DNA of 64,000 nucleotides from an uncultured bacterium (lineage in GTDB: Bacteria; Spirochaetota; UBA4802; UB4802). Where the stretch lies: NCBI GenBank assembly GCA_937920495.1, contig CALEUQ010000039.1:8802-72801 (forward strand), read 5' to 3'. A model generated the notes under the pieces. It was not told the origin of the DNA, made no database searches, and worked only from the letters and a program-made list of their open reading frames with translations. Position numbers and translations under genes: made by a program. Of the stretch, positions 13,161 to 51,378 are shown one piece after another (the first letter of the stretch is position 1; the number at the start of each line of letters is the position of its first letter).

Positions 13161-13709
13161 CTACATCCAGTACACCTGCATGGTATTTTTTAATGTAGTC
13201 TGAATTTCTTTGCCGGCAAAAAGCCCCACCAGAGTCAGCGCAAATGGTAGTGCACATCCCGGGCCCTTTGCAGTGACAATTGTGCCATCAACCACAACAG
13301 GTTCATTCACAATAGTTGCACCGGTAAGTTCATGCTCAAAGCCAGGAAAACATGTTGCTTTTTTGCCATACAAAATTTCAGCAGCACCCAGCACAATAGG
13401 TGCAGCACATATAGCAGCAACATACCCACCTTTTGAAAAAATATGTTTAATGAATTTGTGCACATCATCATTGTTTTTTAAATTTTCACTACCAGGCATT
13501 CCACCCGGTAATACTATACAATTATAATCGACAGGATTGCATTTATGCAATAGTGTATCCGCCTTAATTGCAATTCCATGCGAGCCGGTTACAAGAGTGT
13601 CAGAAAGCGCCGCAGATTGTACATCCAGATTTGCTCTTCGCAGAACATCAATTATTGTTATAGCTTCTATCTCCTCAAATCCCGGAGCAAGCGGTACAAT
13701 TATTTTCAT
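13161..13709 (-). CDS. DJ-1/PfpI (ThiJ) family protein.
   Basis: This 182-aa protein shows MKIIVPLAPGFEEIEA...DYNCIVLPGG...AAICAAP, with the nucleophile-elbow Cys of the family. Confidence 0.8.
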   Translation of the reverse strand: MKIIVPLAPGFEEIEAITIIDVLRRANLDVQSAALSDTLVTGSHGIAIKADTLLHKCNPVDYNCIVLPGGMPGSENLKNNDDVHKFIKHIFSKGGYVAAICAAPIVLGAAEILYGKKATCFPGFEHELTGATIVNEPVVVDGTIVTAKGPGCALPFALTLVGLFAGKEIQTTLKNTMQVYWM

Positions 13710-14840: not shown

Positions 14841-15740
14841 AACCCCTTGAATTGTCTACATTCAATTAACACTTAACTATAGGCATTTATCCTAATTTTC
14901 AATATATAAATGTCAAGCAAAAGATATATGATCCTGCGTATTCAAAATAAAAATTTTACATTTTTTCCACATATCATTATAAACCTTTTAAAAATAATAT
15001 CAAACTTTATTTTACGCTACTTCTTTTCAAACACTGCCAGGCTTTCATCCGTATTTAATATTTTTTTACCCATAGATTTTATGCAGGCTCCACTTCAATG
15101 GAGAAGTACAATTTTTTAACTGAAAGATAGTTTTAAATTAAGGAACGTCCTCATGAAGTTGATTAGCCACAAACTAACTCAAAGGATAAGCCCTTATATA
15201 AATAGATACAAATGCTGTTAAAAATGTCTACTTACAAATTATGTTTGAGGAGCGCAAGAAAATTGCTTGCATGCACAGGAAGGTATTAAAACAAATTATG
15301 AATCTATTTATCTGTATATTTACCATGAAGCAACTGAATTGGTTGAATATACTGTCAGAGGTAGACGAAGGCAGCAAAAACGTTTAATTAAACCGGGTAA
15401 CAAGGATAGTGAAAATACACAATTGTGTGATTATCAGAAAGAGGCATGATGTAATTAACAACAAAACCAAGTATGGCCACCGGGAAGCTAATATGGTAGT
15501 CTCACGTCAAAGCAAAGCAGCTCTGGTTGTATTACGATAAAGAAAACTGCACATCGTTATCATCTGTAAAATACAACAAAGGACGGTACGACTGATGTAA
15601 AGGACTGTAGTAGAGATGTTGAAAAAATATCCTCTACATATATCATCTTTGATAACAGTCTAGAAAAATTGCGCTTGGTCATTGAATCCGTGACAAAATA
15701 AAAATTGACAGATGTAATTATTTTTTTATATTATTTCAAG

Positions 15741-16061
15741 TTATAGAGATATTACGGAATAAAACTTCTGGAGGAAATTATGGATTTTGAGACCACTACC
15801 TGTATTTCTCACACACATCTTGGTATAATTAGTACCAGTATCAATAAACCGTGCAATATCGCTGTCATAGATTACCGTAATTTCATTAGTCACTATCATC
15901 GGATCGTTTGTTTTTTCTGACTCATCTATAGCCAGACCCAGACGTGGTCCACCACATCCTATACCAGAAAAAACTAAACGCAGTGCAGATTTCTTGAAAT
16001 CTACTTCCTTTGTAGCTTCTAAAATTTTTTGCTTTGCAGCTTCGGTAATAGTAATATTCAT
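15741..16061 (-). CDS. HesB/IscA-like Fe-S cluster assembly-related small protein, lacking the C-terminal Cys pair.
   Basis: This 106-aa protein shows MNITITEAAKQKI...ALRLVFSGIGCGGPRLGLAID, which resembles the IscA/HesB N-terminal pattern. Confidence 0.4.
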   Translation of the reverse strand: MNITITEAAKQKILEATKEVDFKKSALRLVFSGIGCGGPRLGLAIDESEKTNDPMIVTNEITVIYDSDIARFIDTGTNYTKMCVRNTGSGLKIHNFLQKFYSVISL

Positions 16062-16201
16062 AAATATTTACCTTTAAATTAAATAATATAATATTAAATT
16101 ACTAAATATCCTGGAAAGTTCCAATAATTTTTTTAAGCTCATTTTAAGAATTTTGGGAAAATTATACATATCTTGTGATACTATAATGAAAGCAACTCTG
16201 C

Positions 16202-16365
16202 GGGTTTTTTATTGAAACAGTCTTTTTATGCAATACTATTATTCTTAAGTAGCGTTTTTTATGCATAAGAAATTAACGCAAAGATGAAATAACTTTTTGA
16301 TGGATAATCTTGTTTCAAAAATACGGAAACAAGAAAAAAATAATTATCCCATCTCAACATACAAC
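16202..16365 (+). repeat. Intergenic element copy A. It is about 160 bp and contains the palindrome TTATGCATAA. Its paralog lies at 26094-26250.
   Basis: About 80-85% identity to 26094-26250 was found by reading and aligning. The shared core is GGGTTTTT..ATT.AAACA...TTTTATGCAA...GTTTTTTATGCATAAG.AAT.AACGCAAAGATGAAAT..ACTTTTGAT.G...CATCTCAAC. Confidence 0.7.
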
Positions 16366-16512
16366 ACATTGTCAAGAAATATTACTCTTAACTTTGTATA
16401 TGCATAATAAAATGTCAAATAAATAAGTTGACAATAACCCCGCTGTATAACACTGTGTAGTTCATAGTGATTTGTATATATTAATTTACTCTATTTACAG
16501 GAAATTTTTACC

Positions 16513-21184: not shown

Positions 21185-22144
21185 ATGGCTCTGACCCCAA
21201 CACCCGTACGAACATTACAACATTACCTGGAAGAAGCCATCTTTGTGGGACAGGCCCACCGGCTTGGCGTGTTTAAAGAACTTTATACAAAGCCAGATAC
21301 ATCAGATGGCCTTGCAAAAAGAATGCAATTTGACACACGCGCAACATGGATACTTTTAGAAGCGCTTGTTGAATTGGGATACCTTGAAAAAAATAATGAA
21401 ATCTATAGTCCCACAGAATATTGCACACATCATTTAATTGACGAAAAAAACGATGAATACGAGGGTAACTTTTTACAGTTCTTACTGTATCTCATCAACC
21501 CGTGGCGCACATTGCCTCATGTACTAAGTACCGGAAGTCCTGATGAATCCAGCTTTAAGGAATTATCCATGCATGATTTTATCAAAGGTATGGATTCCCC
21601 CTGGAAAAAGAAATTAGCGCCTGAAATAGTTGACCTGTGTATTGCACATTGCTCTGACCCCACAACCTGCATTGACATAGGTGGTGCCCCCGGAACAATT
21701 GCCAGAGAATTTGTGCGCAGGGGAATTAAAACAATAGTATTTGATCTGCCTCAATCACTAGCAATAACTCAAGATGAGTTGACAACCATCCCCAATATAG
21801 AAGTAATAGCAGGCGATGCAACAGTTGCATTACCGGATCGCAAGGTTGATATAGCATTTTTAGGAAATCTGTGCCATGGGCAAGGGCCTGAAGATAATCA
21901 GAAAATAATAACCATGTGCTATGATAGCCTTAATAAGAATGGTATCATAGCTATATTTGATAACTTACGAAACGAAAGTTATTTAGGTGCAACGCTTGCT
22001 CTTCACATGTTAACCCAAAGCAAAAAGGGCAATATCTATTCACGCCAGGAATATTTTGGATGGCTGGGCAATGCCGGCTTTAAAACACCTAAAGTATACC
22101 AGCTATCCGATAGGGCATGGCAGCTTATTATTGCAAAAAAATAA
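21185..22144 (+). CDS. SAM-dependent O-methyltransferase (Methyltransf_2-like, with an N-terminal dimerisation/wHTH domain).
   Basis: The protein shows CIDIGGAPGTIAREF...IKTIVFDLPQ, with an N-terminal wHTH-like region. Confidence 0.7.
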   Translation: MALTPTPVRTLQHYLEEAIFVGQAHRLGVFKELYTKPDTSDGLAKRMQFDTRATWILLEALVELGYLEKNNEIYSPTEYCTHHLIDEKNDEYEGNFLQFLLYLINPWRTLPHVLSTGSPDESSFKELSMHDFIKGMDSPWKKKLAPEIVDLCIAHCSDPTTCIDIGGAPGTIAREFVRRGIKTIVFDLPQSLAITQDELTTIPNIEVIAGDATVALPDRKVDIAFLGNLCHGQGPEDNQKIITMCYDSLNKNGIIAIFDNLRNESYLGATLALHMLTQSKKGNIYSRQEYFGWLGNAGFKTPKVYQLSDRAWQLIIAKK

Positions 22145-22510
22145 AGAGGGGTACATAAGCCGGATTCTGTTTTGACAGCCATCAATCTTGCATGCATGTT
22201 GCCATGCATGTCTATGCGGCCTACCCGCAACCTTGAGCGGGCAACTCTGATAACGGTTGCCTATTTGGCCTTGCACCGGATGGGGTTTGCACTGCCACCT
22301 GCATTACTGCAGATGCGGTGAGCTCTTACCTCGCCTTTTCACCCTTACCCCACTATGGGGCGGTATATTTTCTGCTGCACTTTCCGTCGCCTTACAGCGC
22401 CCGGGCGTTACCCGGCATCCTGCCCTGTGGTGTCCGGACTTTCCTCACAACAATGCACACACCACACTGTGTATGTACATTGTGCGCATGCCGTCTGTAC
22501 CCCTCTTACT
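22142..22510 (-). ncRNA. rnpB: RNase P RNA (bacterial type A), M1 RNA.
   Basis: The minus-strand read gives AAGAGGGGTACAGACGG...GTGAGGAAAGTCCGGACACCACAGGGCAGGATGCCGGGTAACGCCCGGGCGCTG...GGTAAGGGTGAAAAGGCGAGGTAAGAGCTCACCGC...GTGCAAGGCCAAATAGG...GCGGGTAGGCCGC...ACAGAATCCGGCTTATGTACCCCTCTT. This matches the E. coli P4, P10-12, P15 and P18 consensus blocks. The P1 5' and 3' ends are complementary and followed by a U-tract. The track ORFs 22257-22603 on + lie inside it and are spurious. Confidence 0.85.
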
Positions 22511-23490: not shown

Positions 23491-23605
23491 AGTTCCCCGA
23501 AAGCGCGATTGGCCAATCGCGTTTTCGGGGAACTATCGCGCTTTCGGGGAACTATCGCGCTTTCGGGGAACTATCGCGCTTTCGGGGAACTATCGCGCTT
23601 TCAGG
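23491..23605. repeat. A 44-bp near-perfect palindrome followed by about 4.7 tandem copies of a 19-bp unit (ATCGCGCTTTCGGGGAACT).
   Basis: Read directly from the sequence: AGTTCCCCGAAAGCGCGATTGG|CCAATCGCGTTTTCGGGGAACT, then three full copies of ATCGCGCTTTCGGGGAACT and a partial copy. There are no spacers, so it is not a CRISPR array. Confidence 0.9.
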
Positions 23606-23880
23606 TGGCACCCTCATGAGGATATACCATCATGCCTTGGTTAGGATGGAACTGCTACGCACCTTGCAATAACGGCAGGATGGCAAAAGCACTTACATTT
23701 TTTGTATTTTTTATAATTTCCCTAAAATTTTGAATCAGCTTAAAAATTTAAAATAAAATTGTTGCAATTTTTACAGGTCATAAAAATTATTGTCTATCAT
23801 TTTTCCAGATGATTCTACACCATAATTAACTGAATATATTGATGTGTCTTTGAGCAATACAGCGGTGTGTGAATAAAAAA

Positions 23881-25699: not shown

Positions 25700-26093
25700 A
25701 GTACCTTCCTGTATATGTGCGTTATGATATTATACAGTACCTATTTTATGCAACATTTTTTCTTTAGTTTTTTATAACCTTGCCCCTTTTATTAGAAAAA
25801 TAGTAGTAAAAATCGCATTAAATTGAAAATAAGTTTTTATAAAAGATGATAATTACAATGCAAATATTTACAGTTAAAAAGGCTTCTATAAAGAAAGACA
25901 TGCCGTACAGGGATGCACGGCGCCTATGTTGCGGATGTTACGATAATAGGCAGGATGCCGTCGGAACGCCGGCCGTGGAATGAATGAATTTTTAAATATC
26001 AGCTTGTGTTGAATTTTTTAGTAACAATGCCACCCTCTGGAGGTCATTTTTAAGAATAAATATACTGTGCTATAAAACTGTAATCCGCGCTGT

Positions 26094-26250
26094 GGGTTTT
26101 TGATTAAAACAATCATTTTATGCAACAATATTATTGCCAGTAAAGTTTTTTATGCATAAGGAATCAACGCAAAGATGAAATTTACTTTTGATAGGTCTTA
26201 TTTCTTAATAATACTAAAAGAAGGAAATAAAAAAACATCTCAACGTAAAA
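26094..26250 (+). repeat. Intergenic element copy B. It is the paralog of 16202-16365 and lies about 70 bp upstream of the tetR gene.
   Basis: The alignment is the same as for copy A. The palindrome TTATGCATAA lies at 26150-26159. Confidence 0.7.
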
Positions 26251-26318
26251 ATTAATTTGACGTTTTTATGCGCTATCAGTATATTGTTAACTAAATAGTT
26301 AGTTAATATTTAACGAAT

Positions 26319-26927
26319 ATGAAAACAACCAAAGACAAAATACTGAATGCTGCTATTGATGAGTTTGCACACTATGGGTTTGATGGCGCACGTATTGATC
26401 GCATTGCACATAAGTCAAAAGTAAATAAGGCTATGATATACTATCATTTTCCAGGAAAGGAAGCATTGTATGCATCAATTTTGCGAGAACTGGCACAAAC
26501 CATTGCAGATACTATCACTAACAATATAGCAAAAGTGTATGAAACAGGTAACCCGCTTATTATCATTGAAGCATACGCCTATCACATAAGCAACTTAGAC
26601 AGGCGATATTTTATGATTGTTATGCGTGAACTAGCAAGCGGTGGCAAATTCATAAAGAAGATTATAGTACCAACAATCATTGAACCCATGACTCAAATTA
26701 TTGGCAACCTGTTTGAGGCAAACAAAGGCACACACATCAATCCTGCCCTACACCCGCATTATACAATGATATCGGTAGCCGGAGCTGTTATCTTCTATAA
26801 TCTTATGCGCCAGATATTACACGGCACATCACTTCACCAAAAGCTTTTCAGTGATGATCATGTATATGAGTATATTGCCAATCTTCTCACATTAATGTCG
26901 CACGGTATTATCAAGGAGGATGTATGA
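26319..26927 (+). CDS. TetR/AcrR family transcriptional regulator.
   Basis: An N-terminal HTH is present: KILNAAIDEFAHYGFDGARIDRIAHKSKVNKAMIYYHFPGKEALY. Confidence 0.85.
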   Translation: MKTTKDKILNAAIDEFAHYGFDGARIDRIAHKSKVNKAMIYYHFPGKEALYASILRELAQTIADTITNNIAKVYETGNPLIIIEAYAYHISNLDRRYFMIVMRELASGGKFIKKIIVPTIIEPMTQIIGNLFEANKGTHINPALHPHYTMISVAGAVIFYNLMRQILHGTSLHQKLFSDDHVYEYIANLLTLMSHGIIKEDV

Positions 26928-45902: not shown

Positions 45903-46040
45903 ACACATACCCCATAATAAATAGGAATTTTTGACGCGAAGTAATAAAGTTAAAATGGAGAGTGTACCACATATAAATTTATTCCATTTGTATGTCAACA
46001 AAAGTTTTATGTTTCAAACGTAAAATTGCATTTCAATAAT

Positions 46041-46146
46041 AAAATTTGTGAACATAATAAACATATTGTACACCCCCGCCGGCTTCGGCGGCGGGGATGT
46101 GCACTTTTTTATTAACAAAATATTTGTAAGGAATTATTAGTGAAAG
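46041..46146 (+). repeat. Hairpin-containing intergenic element copy A. It has a conserved 5' box, a GC-rich extended hairpin with a UUCG loop, a T-run and a conserved 3' box. Its paralog lies at 49881-49982.
   Basis: It aligns with 49881-49982 at about 88% identity. The hairpin at 46067-46103 is TGTACAC-CCCCGCCG-G-C-ttcg-G-CGGCGGGG-A-TGTGCA. It is followed by CTTTTTTATT. Confidence 0.7.
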
Positions 46147-46260
46147 TAATTGACATTTCCTTTTTAACCAATTAGAATTACACAATTAAAAAAATCAATT
46201 TACACAACATAAGCTGAAAAATGTGTTGTAATACCATGTATACAGATGGTGGAGAAATAT

Positions 46261-47271
46261 ATGAAAAATATACGAACACATCATTATGTATATTGTATTA
46301 TTTTTATGATTTTAATTGTATTGTTTGCCACCTATCCCATTTACGGATATGACGAATCTGATGATGATAAGATCTGGGTTGGTATAAATCTCCAACCATG
46401 GATATGGTGGAATGTTTCTTATTTTTTTAGCAAAGACTATGATGAAAAAGAATATTTACATTATAAGTTTGAACGCTCTTCACTGACTGCTTATGAGTCA
46501 AACATACGCCTCTCTGATTATGGAATTACGTTGGGAGTACAAATAGATGCGGGTGATAGAATGATTGGAAAAATTGAGGAAATACTTGGGTACTTTGGAT
46601 ATAAGGGCTTTATACTAAAAATAACCTATGGGAACCTGGAAGGAGCAGCCAGGTGGGATGGCACACTTCAACCTGGTATGTCATCACGCTTTGATTACAA
46701 ATTTAAATTTAAACATTATGATTTGCTCTATTACCCCGAAGATTTTGGATACTATGGTTTTGGACACACGGCATTCACTATTCCGGTACGCGTTAAATTT
46801 TTAGATAACGCTAGTATGTCTTATGGGACACCGATATATGACAAAAACTATCAAGTATCACTCTATTCAATAATTGTGGCATTGGACTCGTTATCTTCGG
46901 CAGTCCGTGGGGTAGAGAATCAATTAACCCAACCATCTATGGGATTAACTTTGTGGCTTTTGTACAATGTTAGATTTGGTGCCGGGAAGGGAACACTGAG
47001 CAACGAAGCATTGCAATGGGCGTTGTCAGCTAATCCAGGGAAAAAAATCGTAGGTCAGAAATCAACCGTGACGTATCTTGGTGCAGAAGCTGCAATTGGG
47101 CTTGCTTATTTCTTTACCGAAAATTCTGCATTAGGTGTTGGTTACAGTGGCAGTACTGCAATGATACAAAAGTGGGGAGGAGGAGCTTCTGATTATACTG
47201 AACTTGGGTATGATACGTCTTTTCAGTTATCCAACCATGGGCCCGTATTTAGATTTTATCTACTCTTTTAA
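46261..47271 (+). CDS. Putative outer-membrane beta-barrel protein.
   Basis: A GGTGGAGA SD precedes the ATG at 46261. A signal peptide is present. The sequence is beta-rich and Gly/Tyr-rich. The C-terminus is ...FRFYLLF, ending in an aromatic residue as in OM barrels. Confidence 0.5.
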   Translation: MKNIRTHHYVYCIIFMILIVLFATYPIYGYDESDDDKIWVGINLQPWIWWNVSYFFSKDYDEKEYLHYKFERSSLTAYESNIRLSDYGITLGVQIDAGDRMIGKIEEILGYFGYKGFILKITYGNLEGAARWDGTLQPGMSSRFDYKFKFKHYDLLYYPEDFGYYGFGHTAFTIPVRVKFLDNASMSYGTPIYDKNYQVSLYSIIVALDSLSSAVRGVENQLTQPSMGLTLWLLYNVRFGAGKGTLSNEALQWALSANPGKKIVGQKSTVTYLGAEAAIGLAYFFTENSALGVGYSGSTAMIQKWGGGASDYTELGYDTSFQLSNHGPVFRFYLLF

Positions 47272-49841: not shown

Positions 49842-49880
49842 AAACTTCTTTAAGCATTCCCTTGCAAGTACTTTAAAATA

Positions 49881-49982
49881 AAATTTTTGAACATAATAAA
49901 CATATTGTACAGCCCTCCGCCGAAGGCGGCGGGGGTGTACACCGTTTTATTAACAAAATATTTTTTAAGGAATTATTAGTGA
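49881..49982 (+). repeat. Hairpin-containing intergenic element copy B, the paralog of 46041-46146.
   Basis: The hairpin at 49905-49940 is TGTACA-G-CCCTCCGCC-gaa-GGCGGCGGGG-G-TGTACA. It is followed by CCGTTTTATT. It lies 64 nt after the stop of the 48843-49841 gene. Confidence 0.7.
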
Positions 49983-50130
49983 ACGACAACCATACTATCG
50001 ATGAAGGAAATGCATAGTAATGTAAAAATATTCTTGACTTATAGAAAATAAAAATTTTTGCTTTTCACAATTAATGTCGTGGTAGTTAAAAATTTTATGT
50101 TTTTAAAAATATTCAGGAGGATCGGATTAT

Positions 50131-51378
50131 ATGACACATCACAACAAACTTTTTGGCCTATCACCGGAAGCAGGGCGATGGGTGTACGTTGTTACAAGCT
50201 TAATTATGTATTTATGTCTTGGAAGCGTGTATGCATACAGCATTTTCTTACCAGTAATTAAAGAAAGTTTTGGCGTTACAGCTTCCCAGGGAAACCTTCC
50301 ATTCATGATCTTTTTAGCTTTCTTTTCAATTCTAATGTTCTTCTCAGGAAGAATTATGGAAAAATATGGGCCAAAGAAAATTGCTATCTTTGGCGGTCTT
50401 ATTGTTGGACTTGGATGGGCATTGTCATATTTTGCCGGTGAGTCAAAAAATATTTATATTCTTATTTTGACGTATGGCATTATTGCCGGTAGCGGTGTAG
50501 GTGTTGTGTATGGTTGTCCCATCAATATTGCCGGGAAATGGTTTCCAGATAAAAAAGGTTTAGCAACAGGATTAATGCTGGCAGGATTTGGTGGTTCAGC
50601 TCTCATTACTGGAAAGCTTGCAGGAGTGCTGATCCCATCAATTGGACTTTCAATGACATTCCTTTATTTTGGGTTTGGTTTTGCAATTCTTTTAGTGCTA
50701 CTGGCATTGCCATTCAAATCTCCGGAAGCAGGGTGGAAGCCCGCAGGCTGGACACCTTCCGCTGCTGCAGCAAGCGCAGTTGATTTTGATTCAGCTGAAA
50801 TGATAAAAACTTCTACATTTTGGGGTTTATTCCTGGCATACATCATTGGTTGTCTGGCTGGCCTTATGGCAATAGGAATTTCTAAACCCGTTGGCAGTGA
50901 AGTTATTAAAATTGATGGGGAAACAGCAACAACCCTTGTTGGAATTTTTGCAATTTTCAACGCATTAGGTCGTCCACTCTTTGGCTGGCTCACCGACAAG
51001 ATAACACCAAAAGGTGCAGCCATTCTCAACCTTTTGATTATCATCGCTGTCTCTGCAATGATGCTTATGGCAAAAGAAGGCGATGTGGTTATGTACACGG
51101 TTGCGTTCTGTGGTTTCTGGCTAATATTAGGTGGCTGGCTTGCAATTGCTCCAACAACTACTGCTACATTTTACGGATTGAAGAATTATGCACGTAATTA
51201 CGGTATCGTATTTTTTGCCTACGGTTTGGGTGCTATCATTGGTGGTATTATCTCAGGTCAGGCAAAGGATGTATTTGGCTCATATCAGGTTGCTTTCTGG
51301 CCAACACTTGTTCTTGGTGTAGTTGGACTTATGATAGTAATGGCATTGCTCAAACCTCCAGTTAAAAAAGCTGCATAA
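50131..51378 (+). CDS. MFS transporter, oxalate/formate antiporter (OFA) family.
   Basis: The protein shows YVVTSLIMYLCLGSVYAYSIF and has 12 TM segments. Confidence 0.8.
   Translation: MTHHNKLFGLSPEAGRWVYVVTSLIMYLCLGSVYAYSIFLPVIKESFGVTASQGNLPFMIFLAFFSILMFFSGRIMEKYGPKKIAIFGGLIVGLGWALSYFAGESKNIYILILTYGIIAGSGVGVVYGCPINIAGKWFPDKKGLATGLMLAGFGGSALITGKLAGVLIPSIGLSMTFLYFGFGFAILLVLLALPFKSPEAGWKPAGWTPSAAAASAVDFDSAEMIKTSTFWGLFLAYIIGCLAGLMAIGISKPVGSEVIKIDGETATTLVGIFAIFNALGRPLFGWLTDKITPKGAAILNLLIIIAVSAMMLMAKEGDVVMYTVAFCGFWLILGGWLAIAPTTTATFYGLKNYARNYGIVFFAYGLGAIIGGIISGQAKDVFGSYQVAFWPTLVLGVVGLMIVMALLKPPVKKAA

Follow-up and report, generated by a model that had tools for sequence, protein, structure and literature searches.

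The pneumococcal BOX and RUP, the Neisseria Correia and the enterobacterial ERIC elements are modular dispersed intergenic repeats that reach tens to hundreds of copies per genome, those of the Correia and RUP families also being characterised by terminal inverted repeats and target duplications. Paralogous small RNAs (sRNAs) of the Qrr and PrrF types also occur in multiple copies and have intrinsic terminators. We analysed a 64-kb stretch of DNA (hereafter the window) from an uncultured spirochaete lineage, in which two similar intergenic sequences, copies A and B, stand upstream of an alcohol dehydrogenase (ADH)/glycosyltransferase cluster and of a tetR-efflux operon, respectively. The sequence is a repeat of a familiar kind, the dispersed intergenic repeat. 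On balance, we favour the view that a rare, low-copy, non-coding and lineage-restricted repeat has left partial and decaying copies in variable spacers, A and B being two of them. According to the same reading, its distribution would be limited to a narrow clade within the uncultured Leptospirales-like Spirochaetota, an affinity that was taken from the names on the closest TetR and ADH homologues.

Both copies were recovered on the + strand where the preliminary description had placed them, and their match persisted under alignment software. In particular, blastn aligned 16164-16364 (copy A) with 26056-26250 (copy B) at 72.9% identity over 203 nt (E 5e-26), MAFFT also gave the match, and an nhmmer profile widened it to 16136-16363 and 26041-26252. 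Identity was 77.5% in a core of 120 columns and about 90% in the best 50 nt (the alignment being judged by eye); the similarity is far above chance, at values slightly lower than the 80–85% originally proposed. The palindrome TTATGCATAA and the upstream half-site TTTTATGCAA had been located correctly (Table 1), as had the genes, with about 155 nt from copy A to the ADH ATG (16513) and about 70 nt from copy B to the tetR ATG (26319). Beyond A and B, no third copy was detected in the 64-kb window by blastn or nhmmer. The element measures approximately 200–350 bp, and the stretch originally flagged is AT-rich and longer than 100 nt. The last 9 nt at the right, CATCTCAAC (16350-16358 and 26236-26244), are the same in copies A and B and are missing from the two further copies described below (L041 and L044), and thus the ends of the repeat unit are incompletely defined. 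Downstream of copy A we found a zinc-type ADH, followed by two GT4 glycosyltransferases and two methyltransferases, while copy B is followed by a TetR regulator (26319-26927) and by outer-membrane factor, membrane-fusion protein and ABC transporter genes. Copy B was near-identical in two contigs of the same species as the window (L001 and L002).

Table 1. Coordinates of the repeat copies, their motifs and the neighbouring features in the window.
Feature	Position	Strand	Remarks
Copy A, AT-rich repeat	16136..16358	+	blastn and nhmmer against copy B and L041; 5'-truncated, lacking the GC-rich module
Copy B, AT-rich repeat	26041..26244	+	blastn/nhmmer; right end 12 nt before the tetR -35 box
Perfect palindrome TTATGCATAA, copy A	16259..16268		Invariant in A, B and L041
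Perfect palindrome TTATGCATAA, copy B	26150..26159		Invariant in A, B and L041
TTTTATGCAA, copy A	16224..16233	+	33 nt upstream of the palindrome
TTTTATGCAA, copy B	26116..26125	+	32 nt upstream of the palindrome
CTGCGGGTTTTTT, copy A	16198..16210	+	3' half of terminator-like hairpin and T-run; 5' arm missing
CTGTGGGTTTTT, copy B	26090..26101	+	Terminator remnant, weak hairpin only
GC-rich module upstream of copy B	25898..25983	+	Homologous to L041 1393-1479 (83%); degraded in the window
Nested inverted repeat GATGGATAAT...ATTATCCCATC around CTTGTTTC/GAAACAAG	16299..16353		Stable in copy A only
ADH-proximal palindrome TGTCAAATAAATAAGTTGACA	16413..16433		Identical in L012, L013 and L021, all without the repeat
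tetR promoter and candidate operator TTAACTAAATAGTTAGTTAA	26257..26306	+	TTGACG 26257-26262, TATATT 26280-26285, TTAACTAAATAGTTAGTTAA 26287-26306; outside the repeat
Lineage-specific segment of 1343 nt (1.34 kb)	15013..16355		Replaces 73 nt of the STAS-ADH spacer of relatives; copy A is its right end
IS30-family transposase relic	15376..15660	+	Interrupted by stop codons; NCBIfam NF033563, E 2.8e-11
HesB/IscA-like Fe-S cluster gene	15741..16061	-	Relatives lack the gene at this site

A metagenome scan for the two-motif architecture recovered a further copy, L041, which is 90% identical to copy A over 133 nt (16198-16329) and 78% identical to copy B, and which is accompanied by neither ADH nor tetR. 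On one side of the element there is an IS1595 transposase relic (E 1.6e-12), on the other a degraded MNT-HEPN pair and, after it, a gene for a 230-aa lipoprotein-like protein. Another contig, L044, carries an intact MNT-HEPN pair with the same lipoprotein gene and starts inside a fourth, partial copy; the L041 and L044 copies represent one orthologous MNT-HEPN/lipoprotein locus, unrelated to the ADH or tetR operons. The species of the window probably has a third copy at this locus, as suggested by L043, which encodes an identical lipoprotein and shares its ENA sample with L002. Finally, L042, from a relative whose lipoprotein is 90% identical, had no element in its available sequence; upstream it carried a HTH gene of the IS30 type.

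The known copies thus number four, at three loci (two in the window, L041 and the partial L044). An nhmmer search over 544 kb, comprising the window and the comparison loci, returned besides A and B only copy B of L001 and L002, L041 and the partial L044. Two strict patterns searched against public collections gave 0 and 1 true matches: the pattern ATGCATAA-N6-AACGCAAAGATGA, from which L041 differs by one base, had no match in collections of genome and metagenome contigs that do not include the source genome. No matches were obtained among plasmids, phages and viral contigs (three patterns for the viral contigs), and a match in L040 was discarded as a chance hit within coding sequence.

L041 is the fullest version of the unit and consists of a GC-rich module of about 90 nt, a terminator-like hairpin with a T-run and an AT-rich stretch of about 110–150 nt. 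The hairpin follows the GC module as AGAAAACAA-GCAGGCG...CGCGCTGC-GGGTTTTTT, and since L041 shows it whole, the conserved CTGyGGGTTTTT at the left of the flagged element is its descending arm and T-run. Copy B retains all three modules, with the GC module directly upstream of the AT-rich stretch as in L041, though both GC module and terminator are degraded; in copy A, all that remains is the AT-rich tail with the terminator's 3' half. Divergence is comparable in the GC and AT parts (83% and 78%). Pieces resembling the GC module were present at other places and in both orientations in the relatives L003, L004, L013, L021 and L033, so the GC module is in its own right a dispersed repeat.

Two other repeated sequences were noted in the window. 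The first is a second paralogous intergenic pair (46029-46144 and 49868-49983, 77–95% identical), each member of which has a GC hairpin (CCCGCCGGCTTCGGCGGCGGGG or CCCTCCGCCGAAGGCGGCGGGGG) with a T-run and stands upstream of a + strand ORF (46246-47271 and 50131-51378). The second, at 23491-23610, is an array of five head-to-tail copies of the 19-nt unit ATCGCGCTTTCGGGGAACT, preceded by one inverted copy with which it forms a long palindrome, and followed by a GC-rich stretch and a T-run at 23608-23700. The ATCGCGCTTTCGGGGAACT array was also found at the start of the same-species contig L001, while its exact 12- and 15-mers were absent from the loci of relatives.

We then compared the sites of both copies with their counterparts in related genomes, using L003, L004, L006, L009, L013, L033 and L034 for tetR (synteny kept, TetR 71–83% identical), and L012, L013, L021 (91–92% amino acid identity) and L014 (83%) for ADH. 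The related genomes examined kept the ADH/glycosyltransferase and tetR-efflux synteny though the element was missing at both sites: blastn with word size 7 and nhmmer detected it in none of these relatives, neither upstream of ADH in L012, L013 and L021 nor upstream of tetR in the seven loci. Conservation upstream of ADH was confined to the promoter-proximal part (16356-16512 in L012, 16388-16512 in L013 and L021), which includes TGTCAAATAAATAAGTTGACA, probably the ADH cluster's own regulatory site. Upstream of tetR, the conserved part was 26279-26310. All seven tetR loci have a common TTGAC -35 box and a -10 box that is directly followed by TTAACTAAAyrGTTAGTTAA; in the window the promoter reads TTGACG-17-TATATT, and the 20-bp palindrome adjoining its -10 box, TTAACTAA-N4-TTAGTTAA, is kept in 7/7 orthologous loci. 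This palindrome occurs once in the window, even with 3 mismatches allowed, and not upstream of ADH. Thus, TTAACTAAATAGTTAGTTAA at 26287-26306 is likely to be the TetR operator, and we propose it as a candidate.

The sites occupied by the repeat are variable in other respects as well. The spacer between the STAS-domain gene and ADH measures about 380 nt in relatives; positions 19-153 of L012 match 14878-15012 and positions 227-382 match 16356-16512, and the lineage-specific segment of the window lies between these two matches. Besides copy A, this segment contains the IS30-family relic and the Fe-S cluster gene (Table 1). The latter had very few homologues among 5.8 billion proteins (best identity 74%), one of which, in L037, adjoins a nucleotidyltransferase gene, and it looks horizontally acquired. 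The repeat is not the native upstream region of the Fe-S gene, as the homologous Fe-S loci L035-L039 from other metagenomes align only up to about 16132, short of the repeat. A short sequence at 15764-15819, overlapping the 3' end of the Fe-S gene on the opposite strand, resembles the ribosome-binding site and first codons of a 157-aa ORF located between S49 and tetR in L006 and L021 (76% over 59 nt, E 9e-5), and may be the remnant of another cassette. The spacer between the S49 peptidase gene and tetR holds different cargo in relatives, namely a gene for an 88-aa secreted protein, a 157-aa gene or pyruvate:ferredoxin oxidoreductase (POR) genes, while in the window it holds copy B and none of those genes. 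The 88-aa gene (L033 3427-3693, L003 7829-8095, L013 13979-14242) encodes an apparent signal peptide and had no Pfam match.

No terminal inverted repeats were detected at the ends of the copies; a 25-nt inverted repeat flanks the L041 unit and is not present at copy B. No clear target duplication was found at 15012/15013, at 16355/16356 or around 25898 and 26244, where the flanks are A/T low-complexity sequence and no exact empty site is available. The repeat was also rejected as the end of an insertion sequence (IS), since the ends of the 1.34-kb segment have no matching inverted repeat and the IS families differ between loci (IS30 in the window, IS1595 at L041). We infer a spread by insertion or duplication from the presence or absence of the repeat between relatives, the terminus CATCTCAAC common to A and B, and the nearby IS relics. 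The suggestion of a small mobile intergenic element therefore stands in part: the additional copies at an unrelated locus, the variable presence and the location in spacers with IS relics and gene turnover agree with it, while the low number of known copies and the finding of neither terminal inverted repeats nor a convincing target duplication do not, and the element falls outside the definition of a MITE.

According to the favoured reading of a decaying dispersed repeat, the unit would have been copied or inserted into promoter-containing spacers that act as hot spots of IS insertion and gene turnover, and would have come in upstream of pre-existing promoters and operators. The palindrome TTATGCATAA would then be a passenger, and any effect on the expression of ADH or tetR would be incidental. 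The homology of the copies and their modular anatomy are direct observations, as are the additional copies at a third locus, the lack of the element at orthologous sites, the IS relics and a separate conserved palindrome at tetR. Substitutions are evenly spread across the copies and this, together with the similar divergence of the GC and AT parts and the lack of a shared ORF or stable fold, fits neutral decay of recently related copies. No ORF was conserved between copies: a coding function was dismissed, as the small ORFs of both strands are frame-broken or change non-synonymously between copies, and an 8-codon ATG...TGA frame was set aside as it has no ribosome-binding site. The L041 sequence is also contained in a 140-kb NCBI contig, where one ORF covers the L041 copy (as seen in a look-up for spurious ORFs).

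A rather unlikely alternative is that the repeat is a portable promoter/operator cassette for a regulator other than the adjacent TetR, which would put ADH, tetR and the MNT-HEPN locus on one input; jointly with this, TTGAAA-16-TACTAT would fire downstream, and a dimeric repressor would use two operators, TTTTATGCAA within the spacer and TTATGCATAA around +13 to +22. Promoter-like hexamers, which may form an outward-reading promoter, do surround the upstream motif in copy A (TTGAAA-16-TACTAT, 16212-16239) and, by eye, in L041 (TTGCAA-16-TACTAT), but they are weaker in copy B (also by eye), where the hexamers are poor, and the match of copy A is one of five in its region, a number not above that of shuffled sequence (5 observed vs 5.8 in shuffles). 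The two TTATGCA motifs lie 32–33 nt apart, which is about three helical turns, and relatives have kept TTTTATGCAAC upstream of their S49 peptidase gene too, twice in L013; yet neither TTATGCATAA nor TTTTATGCAA nor TTATGCAW was enriched in the window. All four copies are oriented toward the downstream + strand gene, and the 16-nt block that holds the palindrome (TTTTTTATGCATAAG) is invariant in three copies; uniform orientation and invariant block would also fit a function. The palindrome, however, is conserved no better than its surroundings: its conservation is no higher than the overall identity of the copies predicts, and the longest identical runs between copies fit randomly placed substitutions (P 0.32, 0.51 and 0.14). 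Perfect 10-bp palindromes number 102 in the window (one per 627 bp), so that one inside a 200-bp AT-rich element is unremarkable. The presence of the same operons without the element in relatives argues further against such a cassette.

Several side results concern these motifs. A third exact match to TTTTATGCAA was found at 25744-25753, in a conserved region upstream of the S49 peptidase gene. There, TATTTTATGCAAC (25744-25754 in the window) is conserved in all relatives, with two copies about 30 nt apart in L013 (~13663-13705); the sequence could be a binding site, or else a -35-like TTGCAT read on the minus strand. None of a sigma-54 promoter, a dif/Xer site, an integron attC site or DnaA and IHF boxes fitted the element when consensus sequences were compared by eye, and a literature search with TTATGCATAA matched only primers and unrelated sequences.

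We give a similarly low chance to the GC module, terminator and AT-rich tail being one previously undescribed unit, either an sRNA gene cassette or a non-autonomous mobile element that travels from one promoter-proximal spacer to another with neither terminal inverted repeats nor target duplications. In that case TTTTTTATGCATAAG would be the recognition site of its mover or regulator, and the site beside the MNT-HEPN toxin-antitoxin pair of uncultured Leptospirales-like spirochaetes its home.

Slightly less credible is a family of sRNA genes, in which the GC module with its hairpin and T-run would be a functional sRNA and A and B paralogous copies that are still active; the AT-rich stretch would either belong to the regulatory or downstream part of that gene or encode another RNA on the opposite strand. 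L041 speaks for such a family: its bases 1391-1535 fold at -55.9 kcal/mol, far better than shuffled sequence (z -4.9), with an A-tract ahead of a GC hairpin that ends in UUUUUU, and GC-module-like pieces recur in relatives. In the window, by contrast, the structure of the module is lost (z -0.5 in copy B vs -4.9 in L041, with a weak hairpin), copy A has no GC module, and across relatives the orientation of the module flips. We found no conserved promoter upstream of the GC module. The terminator-like hairpin belongs to the GC module and lies upstream of the conserved stretch, not at its 3' end as an intrinsic terminator would. The AT-rich part has no hairpin with U-run on either strand and its fold is not significant in copy B or L041 (z -2.3 in A, -0.3 in B and -1.9 in L041); consensus folding of the window copies gave weak energies only, on either strand. 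The hairpin at 16299-16353 reached a z of -3.45 as a DNA fold in copy A and was not significant in copy B, L041 or L044. We thus rejected a conserved hairpin with compensatory changes, since copy A alone was stable among the four copies folded; two pairs of the A/B hairpin are changed on both sides, a count that comes from a two-copy alignment of very few sequences and from a hairpin stable only in A. When L002, L041, the element and the window were searched against Rfam, no relevant match appeared at gathering and E-value thresholds, and none in the element with E below about 1. The sole match at gathering score in the window was RNase P, outside the element (bacterial RNase P RNA class A, 22141-22506 on the - strand, 301 bits).

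Finally, binding of TTATGCATAA in the two copies by the adjacent TetR, coupling the efflux operon to the ADH/glycosyltransferase cluster, as the preliminary description had proposed in terms of a shared operator cassette and a single regulon, is highly improbable and without comparative support, since the points in its favour are the position of copy B near tetR and the presence of a palindrome, while the element is missing from all seven tetR loci and from orthologous sites of relatives that keep both operons, tetR has a different conserved palindrome of its own that is unique in the window, and more copies of the element lie at a locus with neither operon.

For annotation, these results remove a tempting regulon link between the efflux operon and the glycosyltransferase cluster as unsupported, and identify a candidate that is likely to be the real tetR operator. 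They also put on record a small family of repeats specific to this lineage of uncultured spirochaetes, together with two intergenic hot spots at which IS elements and genes turn over. The known bacterial non-coding repeats would gain a modest new entry if the fuller unit turned out to be active as an sRNA cassette, or to be a mobile element that lacks terminal repeats; as things stand, we regard the element as ordinary and as a product of genome flux.

Among known systems, operators of the TetR family (of the tetO and QacR IR1 type) share with the element a perfect palindrome near a tetR gene. However, an inverted repeat at or abutting the promoter is provided here by 26287-26306, which abuts the -10 box, and not by TTATGCATAA, which in copy B stands about 100 nt upstream of the TTGACG -35 box; likewise, the palindrome that is conserved together with the regulator in all seven loci is TTAACTAA-N4-TTAGTTAA and not that of the element. 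Repeats of the REP/BIME type are GC-rich imperfect palindromes of 20–40 nt in high copy number, unlike the flagged AT-rich stretch of more than 100 nt, and REP-like hairpins were seen only in the neighbouring GC module, of which only scattered copies were seen. With the Qrr and PrrF types of sRNA, the unit shares a low-copy, intergenic location and, in L041, a strongly folding GC-rich part with a hairpin and U-run; it differs from them in that the window copies lack the fold or the whole module, the flagged stretch lies downstream of the terminator, and there is neither syntenic conservation nor an Rfam family. Like MITEs, the element is small, AT-rich and without coding capacity, and lies in IS-rich variable regions; unlike them, it is known from few copies, and no terminal inverted repeats, clear target-site duplication or matching autonomous IS were found. 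In kind, the element resembles BOX/RUP, Correia and ERIC. Those families are far more numerous than the four known copies at three loci reported here, and Correia and RUP differ further in the terminal inverted repeats and target duplication that were not found in our copies. Like all of them, the repeat is non-coding, at most a few hundred bp long and located in intergenic spacers near promoters, and it is built of modules that may be present or missing, varies between close relatives and carries promoter-like and hairpin sequences.
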